This document shows positions 175 to 29,655 of a DNA stretch of 64,000 bases, one piece after another. The translations under genes and the position numbers were made by a program. Numbering within the stretch: position 1 is the stretch's first letter; each line of letters starts with the position of its first letter. This stretch comes from Microbotryum violaceum (Eukaryota). The stretch spans positions 2,480,001 to 2,544,000 of the forward strand of contig CDLV01000007.1 in NCBI GenBank assembly GCA_001244265.2. Direction: 5' to 3'. Under the pieces are notes generated by a model. It was not told the origin of the DNA. It saw nothing but the letters and a program-made list of their open reading frames with translations, and did no database searches.

Positions 175-2926
175 TCAATCATCAAGCACCAACACCTCCT
201 CCACGGCCTCACCACCCTCGACCACTTTCTGCACCTTACTCTGTGTCTTCTGATCCCCCTTCAAATCCGCTTCCACCGCCGTCCGTTTGATACCCTTCTT
301 CGGCTCTTTCGTCGTCGACATCGACGTCGTAGCATCCAACTCGGTGATGATGAACCCGTCATCTTCGTCGTCGTCGTCGTTTGTTTGTGCATCGTCCTCC
401 TCTTCTTTGACAATAGGTTTCGGCGCCTTCCTCGGGATGGGGGAAGGGATTTCCCCGTCCACTTTGAACGTCTCCGAAACTTCATCGGATAAGCTCGATC
501 TGTGGGGTTCCATCGACTCGCGTGTACCAATCAGAAAAACCGAATCCGACAAGGGGTCCTCACGACACCCCCCCCCCCCCCTCGCGCAAAAACCGATCGA
601 GAGTCAGGGGGAAGACTCACCCTAACGAAAACACCACCGGCCAAGGTTGAGGTTCTTCCTCGTCCTCCATAACGGTAAGGAAACTTCCCTCTCCTACCCC
701 CAATTCAACCAAAGTTTTATCCTCGTTATCTTCAAAATCTTCACGTTCGTACAAGATTTTTGAACCTTGCGCGATGGAGATGAACCCTTTCCAACCTAAT
801 TCTTTTTCGACGATCTGCGTGACAAAGTCACCCAAGGTCGCAGAAGTTTTGGCGTGAATGGGAACGTACACGGTCCTACAGATCGAGCATTGTTCATTCG
901 GGACGAGCAATTCCATAGGGTTGAAGACTCTGCCTGAATTACGGGAAAGGTAGACCATCTTGGCTGTGACCCAATCGTTACGAAGGACGTTGAGAGCTTG
1001 AAGGACTAAAACGCCAGCGATGATGGCGTTCGTCGTCGCGATAGCGGGGATGATGTTTCCCGCGTATTCTTTGACTTGAAAACGGGTCTGTGACTCGATG
1101 TTGAAGCAGGATGCGCGAAGATTCGCACAGGCGACGACAAAGTCGAGGGTGTCGTCGTCATCTTTGTCGAAGGAGAGGGGGGAGGTCGGGGAGATACGCG
1201 AGGAGAGACGCTCGATTGATGAGATGAAAAGATTGAACGAGTCGCGTAGGGTTAAGGTGCGTTGATCTTTGATCAGACCTCTGGTCGAACCGTTCGTCTT
1301 TGTTGGGTTCGCAGTCGACTCGGTCGCCGCGTCCGCGCTCGTCGAGGACGAGGTCGAGGTCGAGGACGAGGTCGAGGTCGAGGCCGAGAGTTCGTCCCAT
1401 GACAAAGGGTGAGGCGGTTTGCGGTGCTTCCACATGTCCTCCATCTTGAGCAGTCGATTGATGTCTTGCGAGTAAACCTGTTGAGCGTCTAACCAGATTA
1501 AACCCCTTTGACCTTGTGCCCAAACGAGGCTCTTCGAACGTTGTCGGGCGGGCGGACCCACCTTGTCAAACACCCTCTTGGCAGCGCCAGCTTCAGCCAG
1601 CGATCCACGCAATTGTTTGATCGCAGCTGCTTCTTTGCGAAGTTCTTGAATTTCCTCAGCTGTGGAAGCGGTCGCTCGAGGGTCAGTTCGGTCCCAACCA
1701 CAAGGGATGCAGGAGCAACCAGGGCACACACCATTCTCGCCGTTCTTCTCGGCATCGTCCAATTCTTGCCCTTCGGCCTCATCATCGGCGCCGTACAGTT
1801 GGCTGAGAGGTACAATTCGATAATAAGTAGTGTACATAAACAAGTTTATAGATATCGCGCTCACGGGAAAAGGTAGCTCTTGGCCCAAGCGATGCAATGA
1901 TGGGCCGTGGAGGGCGTACTGCGGATCGTGCAGACGGCGAACGTCTTGGGAACGGGTTTGGCTGAAGGGAGAGTCCAAGAAGAGGTGATCAGCAGTGAAA
2001 CTAGTCTTTCGTGCACCTGGGATATCATATCGCGATCATGCACCTGTACAGTCGTAGCATTCGGTCTGGTCCTTTTTGATGGGTTGGACTTGGCCCGTGT
2101 AGCCGGACGTGCCAGATTCGATCAAGGGGACGTCGGCGGCCAAGCACATCTTGTTGACGTGCCTCCGAGCGTCTGCACACAAAAGAGAGGTTCGGATTAG
2201 CATGATGTGACAGAGGTGTTGCGTCGATATGATGGAATCCTGACCCAGGTTGTCGAGGGCGTTCATGACGAAATCGAACGATTTGAAATAGTCGACATTG
2301 TACTCTGCGTCCTGTAGATCACTGATCTATCTCAATAGGCTGATCCAAGGTGCCACGGAGCGGTTCGCGCACCTTGATGTTTCTGTGCAAAGCCTCGATG
2401 TGGACGTTGGGGTTGAACTTGAGCGCGGTCTCGCGGGCGACCTGGTCGTAACCATCAGAAGGTGAGCGCTCAGTTCGAATCTTGATCCTCGCCGTTCGTA
2501 GCTTGGGCACTGACCACAGCCTTGGGTCGCTTGACGTGTTGTTTCTGGAACAGGAACTGGCGGTTGAGGTTGGAGAGGTCGATGGTGTCGAGATCGAGCA
2601 CTTGGATCAGCGCGTTTGAGCCGCCTCCGAAGCCGGTCATGACTGCAGGTATAGGGGGTTCAGCGTTGGCTACTCATCAATAGTGCCTGGAATGCTCACC
2701 CATGTTTTTGATCAATTCGCAACCGATTCCACCCGCGCTGCAGCGGCCATGATCGCGTCGTAGCTAAAGTCAACTCGGGCACAAAACCTCACCAGGTGCA
2801 GCTGCGACCTGACCGGGACGATCGTACTCACCCTACGACCAGGACACGACTGTTGTGCACCTTGGCAAACAGCTCATCGCCCAGGATCGCTCGTGAATGG
2901 GCGTACCGGTTCGTAGGTGGGGCCAT
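175..2926 (-). CDS. UBA2: SUMO-activating enzyme E1 catalytic subunit (Uba2/SAE2), multi-exon
   Basis: Spliced minus-strand exons give [38 protein letters not shown], the catalytic [35 protein letters not shown] and a C-terminal CxxC (CSIC). ATG at 2926, stop at 175. Confidence 0.95.
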
Positions 2927-3269
2927 GAGAGCTGTGACGACGCGTATGCGGGTGAGTACGGGTGAGAACGGGTGAGTGCACGAGCTCAAACTAATGAACT
3001 AATAGCGACGGCCGACCCAAGGCAGCGGTCAAAGCGCGCTTGGATTCGCCCCAGGAGACGGGCTACACGGGTTAGTTTTAAGTTTTAAGTCATAAATTCC
3101 AGCTAGTAATCGCGTCGTCGGGCTTCGGTCGCGCTCCTAATAGAAAGAACGTAACCTAATCCGGCTGCATCTGACATCGCGCTGCAATAGCAACCTCACC
3201 CCGCGACCGCCTCTTACCTCCTGCCGCTTTCCTACTCGACCTGCTCACCTTCCCTTCCCTCTCCCACTC

Positions 3270-5652
3270 ATGGCTGCACAGGATGTGCTCCCCCCACCTG
3301 TGCAGGATTCGGTCGACATCAGCCATACACCTCTCATCCCTTCCACCTCCGCTTCGACCTCCACCTCGAGCGCACGACCCGATGCGCATACCCAACGCTA
3401 TGACCGTCAATTGAGGTCAGTCGTCTGACGCGAGCTGAGAGCTGCGAGCTGAGAGCTAGGGGATTGCCGCTGAGCTGATTCTGGGCGGGCGGCGGCGGCG
3501 TGCATCACAGGTTGTGGGCCAAGTCGGGTCAATCCGCTTTGGAGAATGCCGATATCCTCGTCGTGAATGCGACCGCTACGGCTGCACAGACGCTCAAGAA
3601 CCTCGTTCTTCCCGGTCCGTCACTTTTTCCCTCCTCGACTCATGTGGGGTTCGAGCTCCACCTCGGCTTTGGAACGGCCAACTGACCTGACCGGACTCTC
3701 ATCGACGCTCGCCAGGTATTGGCAAATTCACCCTCCTCGATCCGACCAAGGTTCAAGGCTCTAGCATTGGCAACAATTTCTTCCTCGACCCGACCAGCCT
3801 CGGTAAGAACAAGGCCGAGCAAGTGACCCAGTTCTTGCTCGAGATGAACAACGACGTCAAAGGGGAGGCCATAGTACAGGTGTGTTCGCGCCACCATACC
3901 GCTCTCCAACAACGGAGCTGATCTCTTGCGGCCATAAACGACAACCAGGACCTCTCCTCGGTGCTTTCGACCTCACCCGAAGCGCTCGAAAAGTACTCGC
4001 TCATTATCGCCGTCGACGTCAACCCGACCGATCTGCTCCAGCTCTCAGACCTCGCATGGAAGTACCACATCCCCCTTATCAAAGTACGATCCTGTGGTTT
4101 TTACGGGTCTTTGACGACTCAAATCAACGAATTGCCTAGCAAGTCCCTTGAAACCTTTCCTCAAGATGGAAAGCGATCCTAGCTCATCCCGAGACTTTTT
4201 CGTCCCACAGTCGTCGAGACCCACCCCGAGAGCCTGATTGACCTCCGAGTGCATCACCCGTTCCCCGAACTGATCGAGTACGCCAACACGTTCAACTACG
4301 ATCGCATGGACAGCGCCGAGTTTGGCCACGTCCCCGCCGTCGTCATCCTCGTCAAGGCGTTGCAGGAATGGCGAGAAAGCGTGAGCATGAGCTTTACGCT
4401 CAGTATAAAGACCCTGTATTCGCACTGAAAAAATCTCTTCCTACGTTTCTCACTCAGCACGAAGGGAAAGGACCCAGTACGACAACCGAACGCAAGCAAT
4501 TCGCCGACTCGGTCCTGGCCAAGAAGCGCCAGCACGACGACGAGAACTTTGACGAGGCCGTGACCTTGTTCAGGAGAGCGGGAACAAAAACGGGAGTGCG
4601 TCGCCCCCCACCTGGATCATCCCAAGTCGACTCATTTTGAAGAAAGATTCTGACTCTCGAATTGCCGTGCACAGATCCCGAGTGAAGTGCAGGCGTTGTT
4701 CGACGATCCGTCGTGTGAGGACGTCTCTGCCTCTGTGCGTCGTTGAGCCGCGTCGAGATCCCTGAGCGAGCCTAGCTGATTAGAATTGGAATAACTGTGC
4801 ACAGTCCGCCAACTTTTGGCTTCTCCTGCATGCCGTTCGTCTCTTCACCCTTCACGCGTCGAACCCTTCCGGTCTGTTACCCCTCTCCGGAGCTCTCCCC
4901 GACATGAAGGCGCATTCGTCCGTCTACGTCGGTCTACAAAATGTCTATCGCACCCAAGCCCAACAAGATCTCAAACTCACCACTTCCTTACTCTTCCAAC
5001 TCCTTCAATCGCTCGGTCTCGATTGCTCCAGAATCGAAGTAGAAGAGATAGAGACTTTCGTCAAACATTCGGCTTACCTCAAAGTCGTACGAGGGAGGTC
5101 CCTGAGGATGGAGATTGAGGATTCCTTGTTGAGTGAAGAGGGCAAGTTGAAGGAAGCGATCGAGGCATCAAAATGGGACGTTGTGCCTACGCGAGCTGTG
5201 GAGATTTATTTGACGTTGAGGGGGGCTGAAGTGTTTTATGAGAGGAGGGGGAGGGAACCGGGGACTGGGGAAGGGGATGAGGAGGGTACGGCGGATAGGG
5301 AAGACTTGGTGGGAATCGTCAAGGAGGTTGTGGAAGGTCTGGGAGGGGGATTGGACGAAGAGGCGTGGGAGGAGATTGAAAAAACGTGTTGGGAAGTGTG
5401 AGTTACCAATCGAAGTGGCTTTTTCGTCAGCTTTTGCGGGTGATTTCAAGCGAATATTTGAAAGCTGAAGCTGTTTGTTGGACCTGGAACAGCTGTCGAG
5501 CAGGCGCGTCGGATCTGCCTCAGATTGCTGCTTTGTTGGGGGGGATGGTCGCGCAGGAGGCGATCAAGATCGTGACTAAGCAGTATGGTCCGCTCAATGG
5601 GACGTGCGTGTTGAATGGCATTGCCTCGGCGACAGGGGTCGTCAAAGCTTGA
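3270..5652 (+). CDS. ULA1: NEDD8-activating enzyme E1 regulatory subunit (APP-BP1/Ula1/NAE1), multi-exon
   Basis: Spliced translation gives RYDRQLR|LWAKSGQSALE, TLKNLVLPG|IGKFTLLD, VETHP, DDENFDEA, LSGALPDMKA and IAALLGGMVAQEAIKIVTKQY, all typical of APP-BP1. Introns are GT-AG. Confidence 0.92.
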
Positions 5653-6173
5653 TTGAGCGTAGGGGAAAGGGCCGGGAAATTGGGAGAGAGGGTAGGTAGA
5701 GTGGAGAGAGCATGGCGAAACTTGAAACGTCTTTTGAGCATTGATCATACTGGCATTGCAAAAAACATTCGGCACGCAGGAAAGAGGGCAATATGCACCT
5801 GACCCTGTCTACTAGTGTCCCGAATTATAACTCGAAGAGAACGCTGACAGCGATCGATTCCCAAGCAACACACGGTACCTGTCCTACACTGTCCTAGCAC
5901 TTTTCACCCACGTCCGGAGATTTGACCGTCCGCCAATCAGAACGGCTTCTTTGCGACTGAGCCTTTTTGAGAGGCGCGAGCGAAGGCAGGCACGGCAGGC
6001 TCGGGGACGCGCGCCTATTGAAGTCGACTGGACGGAGAGCCGTGGTGGGCCGAGCGCCTGAACACCGAGACGGAGCTCGGGAGTTTCACTCTTTCTTTCA
6101 CCTTCTCCCCACCACATCCTCTCTCCACGTTCCCTCTTCCTCAAACACATATCCAATCAACAACTTTCTGAAC

Positions 6174-7777
6174 ATGTCTGTGAGCCATGCATGGATTGTC
6201 CCATCCCCTCCTGGGTTGCTCCGTATTGCTGACCCGTCGTTGCCCGTTCCGGTTCGACCAGGACAACTCCACGTGAGTGAGCGAGCACTTTATCGAGGCG
6301 CGCCGCCGGCCTCCCCGCACGGCACACGGCGGTCGATGTGGCGGTGGGATTCCTTCGCCGCCTGCCTACTCGTCACTTCTCATTCATGAGCCTCACCAAT
6401 TGCTTCTGAATGCCTGCCACCCACAGCCCGGCCAAGTGCCCCAAAGGAGGCGACTGCACCTGCGGGCAAGCTGACAAGGTAAGCCTCGTCATTGAGTTGG
6501 CGACGACGACTCGCGCTTGGCGCTCCATTTGCGACGGCGTTGGACGAGGCGTACGTCAGCTGACTCCCCCACCCGTCGGTTGTTCGTTGCATACAGTGCG
6601 GATCGAGCTGCTCATGCTCGACCACCCAAGCTTGTGCCTGCAAAGCCGCTGAAGGGTCAGTCATCTCAACGGTCTCATTGCCCTTCTCGATGGGGTCGCG
6701 AATAAAGCGCTCTCTCCTGACTCAACGTCCTCCTCGCCACTATTCCGCGCGCCACAGAACCTCGACCTGCTCGTGCGCCGAGGGTCAATGCGCCTGCGCC
6801 CAAAAGAAGGCTGAAGAGCCTGCCAAGTCGTAAGTCTTTGTTACATGTGATAGAATACAATTAGAAATCATCATGCTCATGCTGACTCGATGGATCCTCT
6901 GTTTCTCCACTTGCGGCCCGGCCTCCTGTCTTCCCACCATCCCCACAGTGGCTGCTGCAAGTCCAAGATCTCCGAATCCACCCCCGCCGTCGTGACGGCC
7001 GAATCATGCGGCTGTGCCTCCTTCTCCTGCAACTGCGGGGACAATTGCACCTGCTCGTCCTGCGACCGCGGCGCCTCGACCAAGTCGTGCGGCGGCACGG
7101 GTCCCCAAGCGTGCTGCAAGCCTGGAACGCCAGCCGGTTCGTGCGGTTGCGCATCGACGTCTTGCACGTGTGGTGAGGACTGCCAGTGCTCTTCGTGCAC
7201 TCGTTCGAAGGCCAAGAAGTCATCCAACACCTCAGCTTGCGGTTCGTCGTCCAAGTCGTGCTGCTCCAAGAACGATAAGTCGACTGGACCTCAAGACTGC
7301 TGCAAGCCCGGCTCGTCCGCTGGAACGTGCGGTTGCGATTCCTCCTCGTGCAACTGCGATGATAAGTGCACTTGCTCTTCCTGCCCCAAGGGGAAGGGAA
7401 AAGCCACTGGTCCTCAAGAATGCTGCAAGCCCGGCTCGACCGCTGGAACTTGCGGCTGCGACTCATCGTCGTGCAACTGCGGTGACAAGTGCACTTGCTC
7501 GTCCTGCCCGAAGAACAAGGGCAAGTCGACCGGCCCTCAAAGCTGCTGCAAGCCCGGCTCGACTGCTGGAACGTGCGGTTGTGATTCATCGTCGTGCAAC
7601 TGCGGCGACAACTGCACTTGTTCGTCGTGCCCCAAGAATAAGGGCAAGTCAGCCGGACCTCAAGAATGCTGCAAGCCCGGCTCGACCGCTGGAACGTGCG
7701 GCTGCGACTCGTCGTCGTGCAACTGCGGTGACAAGTGCACCTGCTCGTCCTGCCCGAAGGCCAAGACCTCCGCTTGA
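6174..7777 (+). CDS. Long modular Cys-rich metallothionein (probable Cu-thionein), ~342 aa, ~70 Cys
   Basis: Predicted exons 6174-6179, 6262-6272, 6427-6478, 6597-6655, 6758-6829 and 6949-7777 join in frame (1029 nt). The protein has six CxC-x4-CxC-x3-CxC-x2-C units resembling fungal Cu-MT boxes, plus CC doublets, and almost no aromatic residues. Confidence 0.88.
7283..7760 (+). repeat. Four tandem 123-bp coding repeats (41-aa MT module)
   Basis: tgctgcaagcccggctcg recurs at 7298, 7421, 7544 and 7667. Confidence 0.95.
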
Positions 7778-8600
7778 GCAGTAGTCTCAACATCCCACAC
7801 CACGTCAAGAGCAACCCGACGTCTTATTCAACCCCAGAACCCGGTGGAAGTGTTTTTCTCGGAAGGTGCAACGATTTTAGACTGGCATTGTAAGCTATCG
7901 TTAGTCGTGCTGCGGTTTCGGGTCTGCATGGAATGATTATCCGAGCTTCTTTTTATTCTTGCTTAAACATTTGGACGTTCTGGTATGAACATGTGCCTTT
8001 CGTTTCCGAGAGAGTGGATATGAGGCTCGAGTGTTCTTTTCGCCTGCGTGACCCTGCGAGCAGTATGCTTGCCGCTAGTCATCCGACTCCTGAGCCGAAT
8101 ACGCTGAGCCGAATACCGGCTCTTATAGTCGCTGTGAGGGACGAGACGAGCGAGCACCCATGCGCATCTGGATTGGGCCCGTACGACCATTCAATGAGGT
8201 CGTTCGTCAAACTAGGCCGCGCCGCTGGCTTCGGGTTCGGTCCGGTCACGCGCTAAGCCCTGATCGGGAAGGCGGCTTGCTCATTTCGCCACGACGACGA
8301 CCGACACAACCACGATCGCTCTCCTCCTGGAACTCCACTTCAAAGCCCCGGCAGTGGCGATTCTCAGGGACTCGAAACCATCACTCTTTAACATCAAACA
8401 CGTTTTGGCCCTCTGGACCCTCAACCCGTTTTCCAAGGTACAAGGAGGCTCGTCATCGTTGCGCACAGTCTGGATTATAAGAGAGCCCAAACGAGTCGTG
8501 ATCTCGACGCCGAAGTCGGAGTCCGGTGAGCCCGACTTGAGCCGCAGGGAGGAACCGCGACACTCTATCGCTCGAACGGCCCACACCAAGTTCAAGAACA

Positions 8601-11600
8601 ATGGCCCCCATGCGGATGTACTCCCTCGGACGCCTCCTCGTCGTGCTCTTCTGCCTCATCTTCGTCCTGCGCCTCTTCAGTCCACCGGCACCAACCGACC
8701 AAACCTTGGACGACGGCGACGAGCGAGAAGCAGGGTGGTCCGAACGTTTGGGTCTGGATCGTTATGCCGATTGGGAAGCTGGGGTGACGAACAAGTGGGG
8801 GAGTGGGTTGGATGTGGTCAAGCAGGGGATTAAGGGGAGTTTGGGATGGGGATCGCAAGGGACTCGATTGGGGAGCTTGTACGAGGTGAGTGCTCGCGAT
8901 AGACTGGAGTGGAGGACTTCGCATGATGAGATAGAGCCGAGTGGGGTGCACCTACTCGAGTTACCCCGCACCCGGGGTGTGAATTCCGGGTTGTAATAAA
9001 CTCAAAAGAACGCCTTCGCATGTCTTGCGCGTCACCCAATTCCAGTAAAGGCCCAACGCTGACCCCTAAATGCCGCCTTCGCTCTCAACCCCCACACAGC
9101 TCGTCGCTTCGTCAGATCCATCACCAAGACCAGCATACTTCGATGCTCGGACATCATTCGATCGTATACGGCTCACCTCAGCTCGGTATCTTGGCCAGGG
9201 GCCGAATGACGACGAGCCTACGACCGAATCTTCGGCTGCAGAAGCTGAGGACAATATCGCCTCTTTGACACGGCGGCATATTCTCGTGACGGGAGGGTTT
9301 GGGTCGCTAGGGAGATATGCCGTTCGCGACCTTCTATTGGGACACTCTTCGGGCGCCTTTAAAGCAAAGACGTCGAAAGATCCTGACGAATGGGTAGCCG
9401 TACCGGGTCAAGCACCCCCGATCGACCCAAGTCGCGAAGATTTGCTGATCACCATCGTCGACGTCGAGGACCGATCCGCCGAGCTCGACTTTCTCTTGCA
9501 CAACGCCCCGATCGACGAAAAACCTAAAGTCAAGGGGACTGATCCTCGAGCATCGGCTTTTGCTTCGAGTGAACGGAGTATCGACAGTTTCAAGAGGCAG
9601 GGGAAGCTGAGGATCGTGATAGGGGATGTGCGCGATAAGGACCTGATGAAGAAGCTGTTCTCACCTGATGGGATGGTTGTGACCGAGTTGGCGACGCAAC
9701 AATCTCGTGCGGTAGGAGAAGTCAAACCCATCGTGGCAGGGGGTCATCTTACGACGACGGTTAGAATCCCTCCGGTTTCGGGCATTATACACCTTGCAGC
9801 CTACAACCCCTCAGCATGCCGACTGAATCCGCGGGATTGCGAAAATGTAGAATCGGAAGGGATGGACGTCATGTTGGAGCAGCTCGAACGACCCGGTCTC
9901 GAAAAACCACCCTCGTCGAAGTCGAACGCCGTCTTCGCGAACCGACCTTGGATCGTAGTACCCAGACGAAGAAATTCTTGGAATGATGTCCCCGAAGCGT
10001 ACAATCGCAACGCATCGGAGCTATCGACGGAAGGGGCCATCGAGGCGCTCAAAACATTCACCCTTCATCACCCTCTGCATTCGCTCTTGCTGCGCCTTCC
10101 TCCTCTCGACTCGATTGTTGGTGATCCTTACGCCTCTCGCTCGGAGATGATCCCTCATCTCATCGAGTCTGCATTGGGACACATGCCCTTGAATATTTAC
10201 ACCTCTCCCGATAATTACGAGCCATTCCTCGCCGCCAACGATGCTTCGCTGTCGATCATTCAGAGTGCTCGCATGCTCGAACTCGCCTCGCGGAAGAAGT
10301 TTCTGCGTGCACTTGGATTTGTCGCCGAGGTCGACGTGGTCGGTGCCGAACGGAGAACGAAGGGCCCGAGCACGCTTCCGATTGTCGACATGGTCAAGAC
10401 CATCATCCAATTAACGTCGAGCCAGTCGCCCTTCCTCGAGATCAAGCAACTCAATGCTACCTCGTCGCCGAGCGGCTTGAATGCCGATCAACTGAAGGAG
10501 CAGCAAGCGTCATTCCGCAAAAGGGCAGACAAGATCATTGGGTTCAGACCCTCGACCACTCTGCGCGTCGAGCTCAAGCGCTATATTGCCGGCGTCTTGA
10601 AGCGGCACATGTCATATTTGAGCAGCAAGATCAACGTCGCTTGCGCTTCGCCACCGTCGACCTCGGTACTCGAGAGCGGGATCCTGGCGTTGAACGGGTG
10701 CAGTGCGCAGCTATTGACGATCGTCGAAGGGAGCTATTGGATGTTGGGCTGCTCCGAGGGTGTCGAAGGACCTCATTTGGAACCATTGGCGATCCTCCCC
10801 GCGGTTCCGTTCAAGGAGGGCGTGCGCGCAGTTGAGATTGTTGCCGAACAAGGTCACGATGGTAAACCCGACCTGCAGCTACGGTGTCCGCGCTGGAAGG
10901 ATGGCGAACTGACGGGCGAGAGCGAGGTCATTATCTGGGCCGAGACGCGCGACGGAGGTGAATTTGCGTTCGCTTCCAAGCCGGGCGTGCACAAGATCGC
11001 GGATTGGTTCCCTGTCGAATTTGTCAAGCGCGATTCGAGGGCCTTCTCCCTTTCACTTCCGCCGACACAGGGCAAGGCCGAGGGCGAAGAGAAGAAACGG
11101 CACTTGATCATTCCGGAACCGACGTCAACGCTGAAGAAGATCATGTTCAAGACCGATGTGGACAACTTTAGGATCGCGCATTTCAAAATCAACCCTATTT
11201 GCTGTCCCAATAAAGACGTCAGCAAGGAAGGATGGGACTTTTTCAAAGAAGATCGTGAGTTATTCATTGGGCCGTGTTGGTGGTCGTCGTGAAGGGTGAC
11301 TAACCTACGTTGCACGCGCCACCCTTCAGCCCTGCTCGCCTCTCAAGTGATGTTCCCCGTCCAGGAGGGACACGTGTCTTTGATCGCCTCGACAACGAGT
11401 GTTCAAAGGTGTCGAGAGCTGCACGCCGAATCCGAACGCATCCGCAAGCTCCAAAGCGCCTTAGAACCCAAGGCTGCGGAGCCCGTATGCAACCCCAAAC
11501 GCGGCGACGTCTCTGGGTGGTCGGCAAAGTCTCTTCCCATCTGCCCTATCGACTGTGATGCACCACTCAAGTGCATCGCCACAGAAAAGTGCATGTGCAC

Positions 11601-12873
11601 GCGCGATCGATGCGGCATCTCCGGAAGAAATGGTCCCTTCCCCAGTGTTGCCGGGAGTGATCGAATCTCGTTCAGCAAAACCGTGGTCCCCGTCGCCAAG
11701 TTGACCTTGCAGCAGCGCGTCGATGCGATTCCATGGGAGCGCGTCCTCTTGCCCGGAGCACAACACGCGTTCGCGACGCCGCTCAACGATCTACCATTCG
11801 CCCACGTCATCGCGTTGCCCAAGTCCGTCGACAACCATCTCACTTCGCCCGCGTGCTGGAACATCGACAAGTCCCCTCTACCTTTCCTCGGGGACCATAT
11901 CCTGATCGAAGCGCTGAAGGAGAGGAGCGTCCCACTAGCGGAAGCCGACTTTGTCATGGTTCCATACTACCAGGGGTGCTACTACAACTACCTCCAAGAG
12001 AACACCTTCAAGAAACTCGCCGACACGATTGGGTTCACCGAGTCGCGCACAGCTTCGGTGCCTCACCTCAAGGCATCCAAGATCGTCGTACCCTTTACGC
12101 ACGACTTTGGCTCCTGCACCGGATGGTGGCCCAAACTCGGGGACGTCCTGGGCCGGACGCCGCCGGTGCCGATGGATCAGGCTCTGGCGTGGCAGGTTAA
12201 CGGCGACTACAACACCAAGTGCGTCAAACCTGACCGCGACGTCATAATCCCTGCCGTGACGAAGCATACTAAGGCGTTGCTCGAGACGCACAAGACGGCC
12301 AACGACATCGTCCCCGTTCAGGATCGAAAGTTTCTTGCTTTCTTTGCCGGTGGCGTCCGTGGCTTTGGCGCGATCGTCAGGACCAAGCTTGGCTGTGGCC
12401 GTTCGGGTGGTGAACATGGTTCAGGAAAGATTCTTTACCAGCAGTATGCGCCAGGTCAACGGTACCTCGGGACGCTCTCGATGGCTCGATTCTGCCTGCT
12501 GCCCCGTGGGATCCCAGCGTGGACGACTCGGACCTTCGAAGCGATCTATGCGGGCTGCATCCCTGCTTTTATTGTCGATCGCAACTTATTCCCTTTTCAA
12601 GACATCCTCGACTATTCCCTGTTCTCCGTCTCGATTCCCGAATCCGAAGCGCACCGCGTCGAAGAGATCCTCGAATCCTACCCGGAACAACAGCTGATCG
12701 AAATGCAAGCCGTTTTGGTCAAGGTGCGCGATGCGTTCGTCTTTGACCACGGGCATGAATGGGAAAGGAAGGGCCCGCTGTTTTTTGCTTTGGTGTCGAT
12801 GATGATGAGATTGGATTTGGGATATCCTCAAGTCGGGAGTTGTGGGACGGTGGTCAAGGATACGACGCAGTGA
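8601..12873 (+). CDS. Type II membrane exostosin-family (GT47) glycosyltransferase with an N-terminal NAD-binding SDR/epimerase-like domain, ~1327 aa
   Basis: Exons 8601-8885, 9100-11254 and 11330-12873 join in frame. Features: signal anchor LLVVLFCLIFVL, Rossmann motif ILVTGGFGSLG, a Cys-rich linker, and exostosin motifs ADFVMVPYY and FCLLPRG..WTTRTFEAIYAGCIP. Confidence 0.85.
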
Positions 12874-26908: not shown

Positions 26909-29655
26909 TTACTCCTCTGGAGCACGGTCGACACTTAGCGACTCGGAATCTCCCAACGAGAGTAAATCGGTTGGCTTTGTGAGCAGATCCCGTGGATGGG
27001 ATCTCCCAACGTCGTTTCGTTTCCGCTTCGTGTGGAAGCACATTTCAGGGCCGATATTCATCTTCCACGCCCAAAGTGGTGTCGATATACCGAAGCTCGG
27101 CAATTTCGAATCGTTGAAGCCGCCTCCGAATGGATTGGGGTCAGGCACGTGCTCGTTCCCGGACTGGTCCGGTTTTTCGTACCAGGTCTCGTGGGGAGGA
27201 TGAATGTTGAAGGTAGTCGAGCCGTTGTTAATGGGGTTGCGGGGATTGGAGTCAGGCACGTGCTCGTTCCCGGACTGGTCCGGTTTTTCGTACCAGGTCT
27301 CGTGGGGAGGATGAATGTTGAAGGTAGTCGAGCCGTTGTTAATGGGGTTGCGGGGATTGGAGTCAGGCACGTGCTCGTTCTCGGAGTGGTCCGGTTTTTT
27401 GAACCAGGTGTCGTGGGTAGAATGACTGTTGAAGGTAGTCGAGCCGTTGTCTATGGAGTTGTCGAAATTCTCTTCGAGCGATCTCTTGCCGATCGAGATA
27501 CCAGCACCCCACGGATTGGCGCCTAACGATGACCCGACAGTAAGCGCAACTCCGATCATGGGTTGGGCAAAGAGCGTGTGGCCTGTTGAAAGAGAGAAGT
27601 TCGATTTGATTGAGCAGCAATAAAAGCAAAGCACAAGGCTGATGACCGTGCGATCGGTGTGGGCCTGTAGGGTCACAGGTGACACTTACCGCCCGTTCGC
27701 GTTACAGCCGAGCAAGGGCCCGCGCCTGGGCCTGCAACTCCGATATCTGGGTAGTGGAAGTGGTTGGTAGGCGACCATTCGTCAGTATCACAATATAATG
27801 ATCGACGAGTCGTTCTTTGCAAAGCACGCTTACTAATTGACGGGCCACCACCGATTGAGACTGACGCTGGGGAAAAAGCTGCCATGCCCGCGACACGCGA
27901 ACACAGCAAGCGAATGCCGTCACACATGAACCGAACAAATCAGCGACATTAGGTTGTAGAAAAGAGAGGTGAAAAGCTCAACTTACCCAACACTTTATGG
28001 AGCTTGATCTGGAGACTTATTGACAGACTCACACTAGCGGAAAGTGTGGCCGAACCCATGCCGGTGATGCTGAGTGGTGTGGAACTGTGAGTGATTCCCC
28101 AATTCCCCTGGGGGACAGGGATGCCGGGCGCAATAAGACGCAACCCCATACCGTCTTTGAGCCCGAGGTAGACGGTCTTATCGAATTGCAAATGCCCCGT
28201 CACTTTTGAGATGCTGTAGCCCCATCCGACGGAGATGTACACGCCCATGTCGACAACGTTCGGAATGGAGTACGATAATCGAGGCAGTCCAGCTTTGAAG
28301 AGCGTGCCGCCCCAGCCGAATGACCCTGGGATGGTAGCCTAGAGTCCGTCGATAGGGTCCTGTCAGTGATCAGATGTTCGGTCGGGCGACGGGCACTGCA
28401 GCGGAATCGGGGCACAGCGACTTGACAAATGAGTTGGCGTGAGAGCACGAGCACGACTGACCTTTGCATCGACGTGCAAATGAGCCCTCACGCCGACATT
28501 GTGCGTTATGGTGTAAATGGAGTATGAGACTGGGGCCCCCCCGAAGGTGGTGATCACCAGTGCAAGACTGATCGATCCGTACGATCCGCAGTCGTCGCAA
28601 CGCGTTGTTGACTGGAGGCACTTCGGATCTGGGGAATTATACGTTTGCGTGCCGTAGGCTCTATGGTTGAGGTCGATGGTGAAACTCGCCACCGGGACGT
28701 CGTGGAAGACTTTCTGCTCCACCTTGTGAACGACCTTGTGAACGGCCTTTCTGATCGCATGCCAGACCTTTCCGATCTTATGCCAGAACGATCGCTTCGA
28801 TTTGTGCGGCTCCTCCATCAAGTCGTCGGCGGTCTTCCCCGGCGGCAGGCCGATCGCGAGTCGCGAAGTATGCGTCGCAATCTTCCAGTTTGTCTCGACG
28901 CCGTAAAAGGTAATCTCGAGGCGCGCAGGATCGAAAGACATATCGTGAAAGTGGAAAGGCTTGAGCGTGTCTTCGGTGAGCATACACCCTGCCCAGTTGG
29001 CGAAGAGCACGATGAGGTGATCGGGTTCCGCTTGGACCCACGACGACCACGCTTGGACCGCGTAATGAAAGGCTGGTTGGGACTGAAAGACGATGGTGGT
29101 TTGCGATGTACCACACATGACGCCGGCGAGCAGTTTGGAAAAGCTTTGCATGTTGATGATCTGCAACATCGGATACGCAAGAGGTCAGACACGTTAGAGC
29201 AATGGCTCGTAGCAGCGGGCCCCGGAAGGGAGGCGAATGTGCAGGAGAGGTGAGAGAACTGGCCTTTTCATGCTTGTACGTCTCCACCTCCATCGTAGCG
29301 AGGTTTACGTGGCCAGTGTCATCTGCGAGGTAGAAGAGGTACAGAAGAAGACGTCAACAAATTAGTCTGAATAATGGAAAGTTTCCAGGCTCTTCCGTGC
29401 GCACAGGCCTCGTCCCAAACGACGCGCACCTTTTTCTCCGACCCAGGAAAAAACCTCGTCATCCTGTAGGTCGAGCGCCGCTGACAGGTCTACGCTCTCG
29501 AGACTTTTCCGATCCTCGAACCATCCCGGATGGACCAGCCCTTTGGTTGCGTACTCGCTGCCTTCGGGGTGAAACGTCTTGAGCACCACCTTCGTGTCGC
29601 CACGAACGAGCAATGCCAAGGAAAGGAGCGTAGCCCACTGACTCAGGGGACGCAT
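26909..29655 (-). CDS. Secreted beta-rich fungal protein (DUF7029/DUF7223-like) with internal 37-aa repeats, multi-exon
   Basis: Signal peptide MRPLSQWATLLSLALLVRG; AWSSWV..HLIVLFANWAGC; C..CGSYG; several KR sites. The exons link by canonical splice signals plus one GC-AG intron. The family name is from recall only. Confidence 0.65.
27141..27452 (-). repeat. About three tandem 111-bp coding repeats (NGSTTFNIHPPHETWYEKPDQSGNEHVPDSNPRNPIN)
   Basis: tcaggcacgtgctcgttc occurs at 27141, 27252 and 27363. Confidence 0.95.

Follow-up and report, generated by a model that had tools for sequence, protein, structure and literature searches.

A spliced Microbotryum violaceum gene encoding a 342-residue probable metallothionein with six tandem seven-cysteine boxes

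Long modular metallothioneins (MTs) are already known in fungi, snails, and tunicates, and the gene described here does not represent a new kind of system. The tested fungal proteins composed of seven-Cys modules, CnMT1 (122 aa), CnMT2 (183 aa), and TmMT (257 aa with 57 Cys), are Cu-thioneins in which Cu5 clusters add up. In 2016, TmMT was named the longest MT (PMC4755600). It holds 41–42 Cu, forms heterogeneous species with Zn and Cd, and complements MT-null yeast (PMC4755600). Longer MTs occur in animals, with multi-domain snail proteins of up to 319 aa and proteins of 365 aa in Botryllus and 399 aa in Oikopleura; the latter two rule out the present protein as the longest MT overall. A 2025 paper mentions that certain mollusk and fungal MTs exceed 300 aa, but the only fungal examples it cites, CnMT and TmMT, are both shorter. 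A preliminary description of the present locus, made from the DNA letters, had judged the protein longer than characterised fungal MTs, and the comparison of 342 aa and 70 Cys with TmMT agrees with that judgement. Our literature search, with most subscription journals outside its coverage, found no fungal MT longer than 342 aa and no MT described from Pucciniomycotina. The protein is likely to hold the record length among the fungal MTs that we found in print.

The analysed window is a stretch of 64,000 nucleotides of the M. violaceum contig CDLV01000007.1, and the MT gene lies near its beginning (Table 1). Exons of 6, 11, 52, 59, 72, and 829 nt join into a frame of 1029 nt, which has one terminal stop and encodes 342 aa. 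The claim that five short exons add a 12-Cys N-terminal domain to the protein is borne out by this frame, in which 12 Cys fall within the first 56 residues, encoded by exons 3–5. All five introns are of the GT..AG type, with lengths of 82–154 nt. A branch-like CTGAC site is present in four of them, and intron 2 has only CTCAT/CTCAC.

Table 1. Positions of the features of the MT gene in the window
Feature	Position	Strand	Remarks
Promoter and 5' UTR region, 521 nt	5653..6173	+	From the stop of the upstream ULA1-like gene to the MT start codon
Exon 1, coding part	6174..6179	+	Start codon and one codon; X14 contig reaches 6180, then jumps
Exon 2, 11-nt micro-exon	6262..6272	+	Letters between the joint sides in X14
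Exon 3, 52 nt	6427..6478	+	3 Cys of the N-terminal domain
Exon 4, 59 nt	6597..6655	+	5 Cys of the N-terminal domain
Exon 5, 72 nt	6758..6829	+	4 Cys of the N-terminal domain
Exon 6, 829 nt (coding part)	6949..7777	+	58 Cys, all six boxes, stop
First CC doublet (aa 69–70)	6953..6958	+	16 residues before box 1; coordinates by hand
7-Cys box 1 (aa 87–105)	7007..7063	+	Pattern search
CC-x8-box unit 2 (box 7142–7198)	7112..7198	+	Pattern search
Orphan CC doublet (aa 171–172)	7259..7264	+	Ser/Lys-rich linker, no box of its own; coordinates by hand
Tandem array	7286..7759	+	Period 123 nt (41 aa), 3.9 copies, 84% matches
CC-x8-box unit 3	7298..7384	+	Pattern search
CC-x8-box unit 4	7421..7507	+	Pattern search
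CC-x8-box unit 5	7544..7630	+	Pattern search
CC-x8-box unit 6	7667..7753	+	Pattern search
Probable 3' UTR	7778..7967	+	X14 and X2 contigs both end at 7967

The preliminary description had proposed looking for the predicted junctions in transcripts. All five, the 11-nt exon included, were found in a single spliced contig of run X14, one of four runs examined out of 15 listed. The joints at introns 3, 4, and 5 were read directly. At the joint from 6180 to 6427, 10 letters lie between the two sides, corresponding to exon 2 minus its first G. In addition, 193 letters lie between record positions 2215 and 2409 of X14, and exons 2–5 minus the shared G give the same number by a hand check. The kind of X14 is unrecorded, and none of the 15 runs is recorded as RNA. 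Unlike X12, X14 passes over GT..AG introns of two genes: the contig that skips all five introns of the MT gene also skips three introns of its upstream neighbour. X14 provided 10 contigs, each at least 99% alike to the window. Run X1 reads through the introns unspliced and behaves as DNA, and X2 provided three small pieces, none of which crosses a junction. The MT gene is expressed, intact, and spliced, with its junctions resting on one run, X14. The DNA run X12 continues beyond position 7967, where the X14 and X2 contigs stop, giving a weak hint that the transcript ends there.

The upstream neighbour is a ThiF-family gene (Pfam ThiF, E 7e-6, below the cut-off), which we take to be ULA1-like, that is, NEDD8-activating, and the downstream neighbour is a large gene with a GT47 domain; both are unrelated to metal. 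An X14 contig of 2901 nt (window 4458–7441) spans the ULA1-like gene and the entire 5653–6173 gap and runs into the MT mRNA. It may reflect overlapping UTRs or read-through, and a two-gene contig does not prove one transcript. Its mean depth is 562 versus about 2100 for the MT-only contigs (hand arithmetic; contig depth cannot rank genes), as might be expected if a strong MT transcript had been assembled together with that of a weak neighbour. At 617–5652, a presumed UBA2-like SUMO-activating subunit gene (minus strand; UAE_UbL, SCCH) apparently stands head to head with the ULA1-like gene (plus strand). Adjacent frames of 740 and 526 aa at 9070–12873, the first beginning with a weakly epimerase-like stretch (E 0.03) and the second containing exostosin GT47, are probably one large glycosyltransferase gene. 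Elsewhere in the window, repeats were recognised by eye at two places on the minus strand: near-identical repeats of about 38 aa behind a signal-like hydrophobic start at 26909–27685, possibly a secreted repeat protein, and His/Gly-rich repeats at 53833–54768, possibly a secreted or metal-binding protein.

Cys accounts for 70 of the 342 residues (20.5%), and the content given for metallothioneins is 13–35 mol% (PMC12508003). The Cys are arranged in CxC and CC motifs and aromatic residues are nearly absent, as in metallothioneins; the remaining residues are mostly Ser, Gly, Lys, Thr, and Ala, with a single Phe, while His, Trp, Tyr, and Leu are absent. Such a composition fits a metallothionein and little else. 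It is very improbable that the product is instead a secreted or structural Cys-rich protein held together by disulfides, or that the open reading frame derives from repeats and has no function. Many Cys-rich secreted proteins have been described in this organism group (PMC4469406), and no significant family or homologue match was obtained, both of which would suit such a product. However, the CxC-rich pattern with hardly any hydrophobic residues speaks against it, as does the lack of a signal-like leader in a crude hydropathy test, where the seven-residue maximum over the first 30 aa was 0.67. The exact splicing into one frame also counts against it, and so do the codon-position bias and the retention of every Cys in divergent contigs, both described below.

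Six CxC-x4-CxC-x3-CxC-x2-C boxes had been claimed, each preceded by a CC doublet. All six boxes are present, and the x4/x3/x2 spacing is the same in 6/6. The second part of the claim holds for boxes 2–6, which have a doublet 8 residues upstream, but the distance is 16 residues for box 1, and the seventh doublet has no box. Besides the boxes and the seven doublets, there are two lone Cys (aa 114 and 164), and linkers of 12 residues lead from a box to the next doublet. The CC-x8-box pattern at the DNA level has five matches in the window versus none in 100 shuffles. In units 3–6, Pro follows the last Cys, and a Pro doublet after the second CxC was found in none of the boxes. An AlphaFold model of one unit had a pLDDT of 58, too low to inform on the fold.

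All six boxes are encoded by one exon, exon 6, and the tandem array consists of units 3–6. The depth of the DNA run X12 is 245 over 7412–7687 versus 227 in the flanks; because this depth is nearly flat, the array is probably assembled correctly. A collapse of the repeat is argued against on the same ground, although no single contig spans the array. The repeats are under coding constraint: 55 of the 67 pairwise differences among units 3–6 (pairs not independent) lie at third codon positions. Units 4 and 6 encode the same protein sequence, with a DNA identity of 97% across the CC-box stretch; units 1 and 2 have diverged further, suggesting that the amplification occurred in several steps. Three low-depth contigs of X1 (window 7480–7755) show 21 silent and 9 changing codons with no Cys lost, the differences being assigned to contigs by their depth values. 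These contigs differ from each unit of the gene at several places, and they may stem from another strain or a related species, from a divergent allele, or from additional units, or may be misplaced pieces. In the genome, the unit query matched only the six units and the 5' DNA of the gene matched only itself; a second match (E 0.5) was considered as a paralogue and judged unrelated. The gene is single-copy as far as searched, although a small intron-split MT could escape such a search.

No homologue was found in the databases. With the exon 6 product (275 aa) as the query, one search gave 4441 candidates, none at E<=0.001; another against 1.84 billion representatives gave 0 matches, no PDB chain was hit at E<=10, and no Pfam family was assigned. 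The unit profile gave 245 candidates among longer proteins, none at E<=10. These blanks are weak, because the searches are insensitive to a Cys-rich query: the exon 6 product misses the MTs in the PDB, whereas the unit profile finds two of them. The best is the Littorina littorea MT (5ML1), at E 0.2; the other is the Neurospora MT (1T2Y), to which the profile (A1) aligns at E 5.7 with similarity also at non-Cys positions. Both are below significance. One of the six units matches Pfam Metallothio_Euk (PF12749; E 0.006), and a genome search with PF12749 gave no match. A metagenome scan with the CC-x8-box pattern found no unit-like locus among at least 120 loci, the best having 3/20 non-Cys residues identical; the scan was flooded by TGC/TGT microsatellites, and its output excluded frames whose motif contained a stop. 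A literature search on the Heliscus Cd-thionein found no paper.

The host was placed by other sequences of the window. For a neighbouring acyltransferase, the best named relatives (the best 3 of 120 listed) are from Sporobolomyces, Leucosporidium, and Rhodotorula, which we take to be Microbotryomycetes. The GC content of the window, 55.4%, equals the published value for Microbotryum lychnidis-dioicae (PMC4469406). Microbotryomycetes belong to Pucciniomycotina (PMC4410428). Judging from these data, the host is a Microbotryomycete, probably a Microbotryum, and not a Tremellales yeast, and belongs to a subphylum other than that of Cryptococcus and Tremella. Since the box spacing differs, the Pro doublet is lacking, the repeats lie in a single exon, and the host is in another subphylum, the tandem amplification looks like one separate from that in Tremellales.

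Our preferred reading, to which we assign a probability of about 0.6, is that such a separate amplification gave rise to a high-capacity Cu(I)-thionein of the cytosol. The points counted in its favour are the 20.5% Cys in CxC/CC motifs, the missing hydrophobic leader, the Neurospora-like box, the Metallothio_Euk match of one unit, the Cu-thionein character of the fungal modular proteins tested, the Pro behind the last Cys of units 3–6, the third-position bias, and the presence in the genome of a copper-fist regulator. This regulator, encoded by an intron-split gene (L129, G000:C11:495943-498984), is a copper-fist transcription factor that has additional Cys-rich motifs, and it is a candidate for regulating the MT gene. 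Counted against the reading are the lack of a metal-response motif upstream, the lack of a homologue, database matches below significance, the rank of the Cd-specific 5ML1 ahead of the Neurospora MT in the profile search, and a K/N ratio of 35/12. We infer metal binding, a preference for Cu, and a cytosolic location. Each seven-Cys box would fold around a small Cu(I)-thiolate cluster, the boxes loading additively while Lys/Ser/Gly linkers keep the modules independent, and additional ligands or capture sites would come from the CC doublets and from the N-terminal part with its 12 Cys. Capacity would have been gained by tandem duplication of the 123-nt unit within one exon, separately from Tremellales. 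It may range from about 30 Cu, if only the boxes count with 5 each, to about 50 Cu, the latter scaled to 70 Cys by hand arithmetic from 41–42 Cu per 57 Cys in TmMT. The protein may also be of use for metal capture. In Saccharomyces cerevisiae Cup1, the terminal CC is not known to be needed for the Cu cluster, and the doublets here may equally be auxiliary sites like that tail.

The CC doublets allow another reading. A doublet and a seven-Cys box could form a nine-Cys domain for three divalent ions, in convergence with the beta3 domain of gastropods, and the protein would then be a modular MT preferring Cd/Zn; by hand arithmetic, its 70 Cys would hold about 23 ions. We regard this as unlikely. 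The unit has the beta3 order C-C-[CxC]3-C (PMC7826182), the CC-x8 spacing is retained in 5/6 units, and the top PDB match, the Littorina Cd9-MT, binds 3 Cd per nine-Cys domain; yet this match is below significance, the beta3 spacing is Cx3Cx4 instead of CC-x8, box 1 has its CC at a distance of 16 residues, and one CC stands without a box. The K/N ratio of about 2.9 would in snails point to Cd, although the wider validity of this rule is unclear. Phytochelatin synthase, reported for the subphylum (PMC4410428), had no match over the cut-off in the genome, but this blank is weak, no control genome having been positive. Furthermore, copper is what fungal MTs mainly sequester (PMC5812535). It is similarly doubtful that the protein is the first fungal multi-domain MT of nine-Cys Zn/Cd modules, formed when a Neurospora-type copper box acquired a CC and was amplified, in convergence with snails. 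If the divalent reading were true, a divalent domain would have developed from a copper box in a lineage for which phytochelatin synthase had no match here, weak as that blank is. The near-identical 41-aa units and a naturally occurring box without a CC close by offer a clean test of whether two extra Cys switch the preference from Cu to Zn/Cd, a question that bears on how metal preference is set.

A third reading, which we consider rather improbable, is a non-specific, constitutive thiol/metal buffer, such as a Zn/Cu store or antioxidant, in place of an inducible detoxifier. The region 5653–6173 contains no Ace1/Cuf1-type or MRE motif, but the motifs sought are those of yeast and animals and may not hold for this host. 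The MT transcript is present in X14, for which conditions are unrecorded and no metal treatment is known. TmMT is also apparently constitutive, with no visible Cu induction (PMC4755600). Cu/Zn SOD gave no match in the genome, with 5/14 controls positive, and Microbotryomycetes are likewise reported to lack this enzyme (PMC4469406); an exon-wise search could, however, miss an intron-rich SOD gene. The lack of a match is shared by this reading and by the Cu(I)-thionein, as cytosolic copper may then be without that sink. On the other hand, the exact conservation of the Cys spacing suits defined clusters better than a non-specific buffer.

Among the described systems, the likeness to TmMT is extensive: both are long fungal proteins from a single locus with six seven-Cys boxes and a differently patterned N-terminal part, in both cases short exons invite mis-annotation, and Pro follows the last Cys in most TmMT boxes, as in CnMT and in units 3–6 here. 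The Microbotryum protein differs in being 85 aa longer with 13 more Cys, in its x4/x3 box spacing (x3/x4 in TmMT), in its regular CC doublets and lack of a Pro doublet, in encoding all boxes in one 829-nt exon (10 exons of 63–105 bp in TmMT), and in its host in Pucciniomycotina. CnMT1 and CnMT2 (PMC4755600) share the tandem seven-Cys boxes with spacers between them, but have three and five boxes rather than six. Of the tests for long Cu-thioneins of Tremellales, the tandem modules are found here and the Pro doublet and the Tremellales host are not. The Neurospora crassa MT (family 8, 26 aa, 7 Cys) agrees in its [CxC]3-C order and has comparable small residues, but a first spacer of x5, one box instead of six, and neither the extra CC nor an N-terminal domain. 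The boxes had been called Neurospora-type and tandem, and the seven-Cys pattern bears this out except for the first spacer. All six boxes have the three CxC and one C of family 8, with x4/x3/x2 instead of the exact x5/x3/x2 spacing, from which TmMT deviates too (PMC4755600). Gastropod beta3 shares nine Cys, their order (5/6 units here), and the tandem arrangement, but has Cx3Cx4-5 before the first CxC and linkers of 2–6 instead of 12 residues; the likeness, if real, would be convergence, as the kingdom is unrelated. In Cup1, a tail CC in a Lys/Ser-rich stretch much resembles the orphan CC linker (PMC4755600), but Cup1 has no repeats and a different cluster motif. By its sequence features, the protein is placed neither in the Tremellales group nor in family 8 in the strict sense. 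It probably works like a modular fungal Cu-thionein. Its length and its host in Pucciniomycotina suggest that a gain of capacity by tandem modules has also arisen, separately, outside Tremellales.
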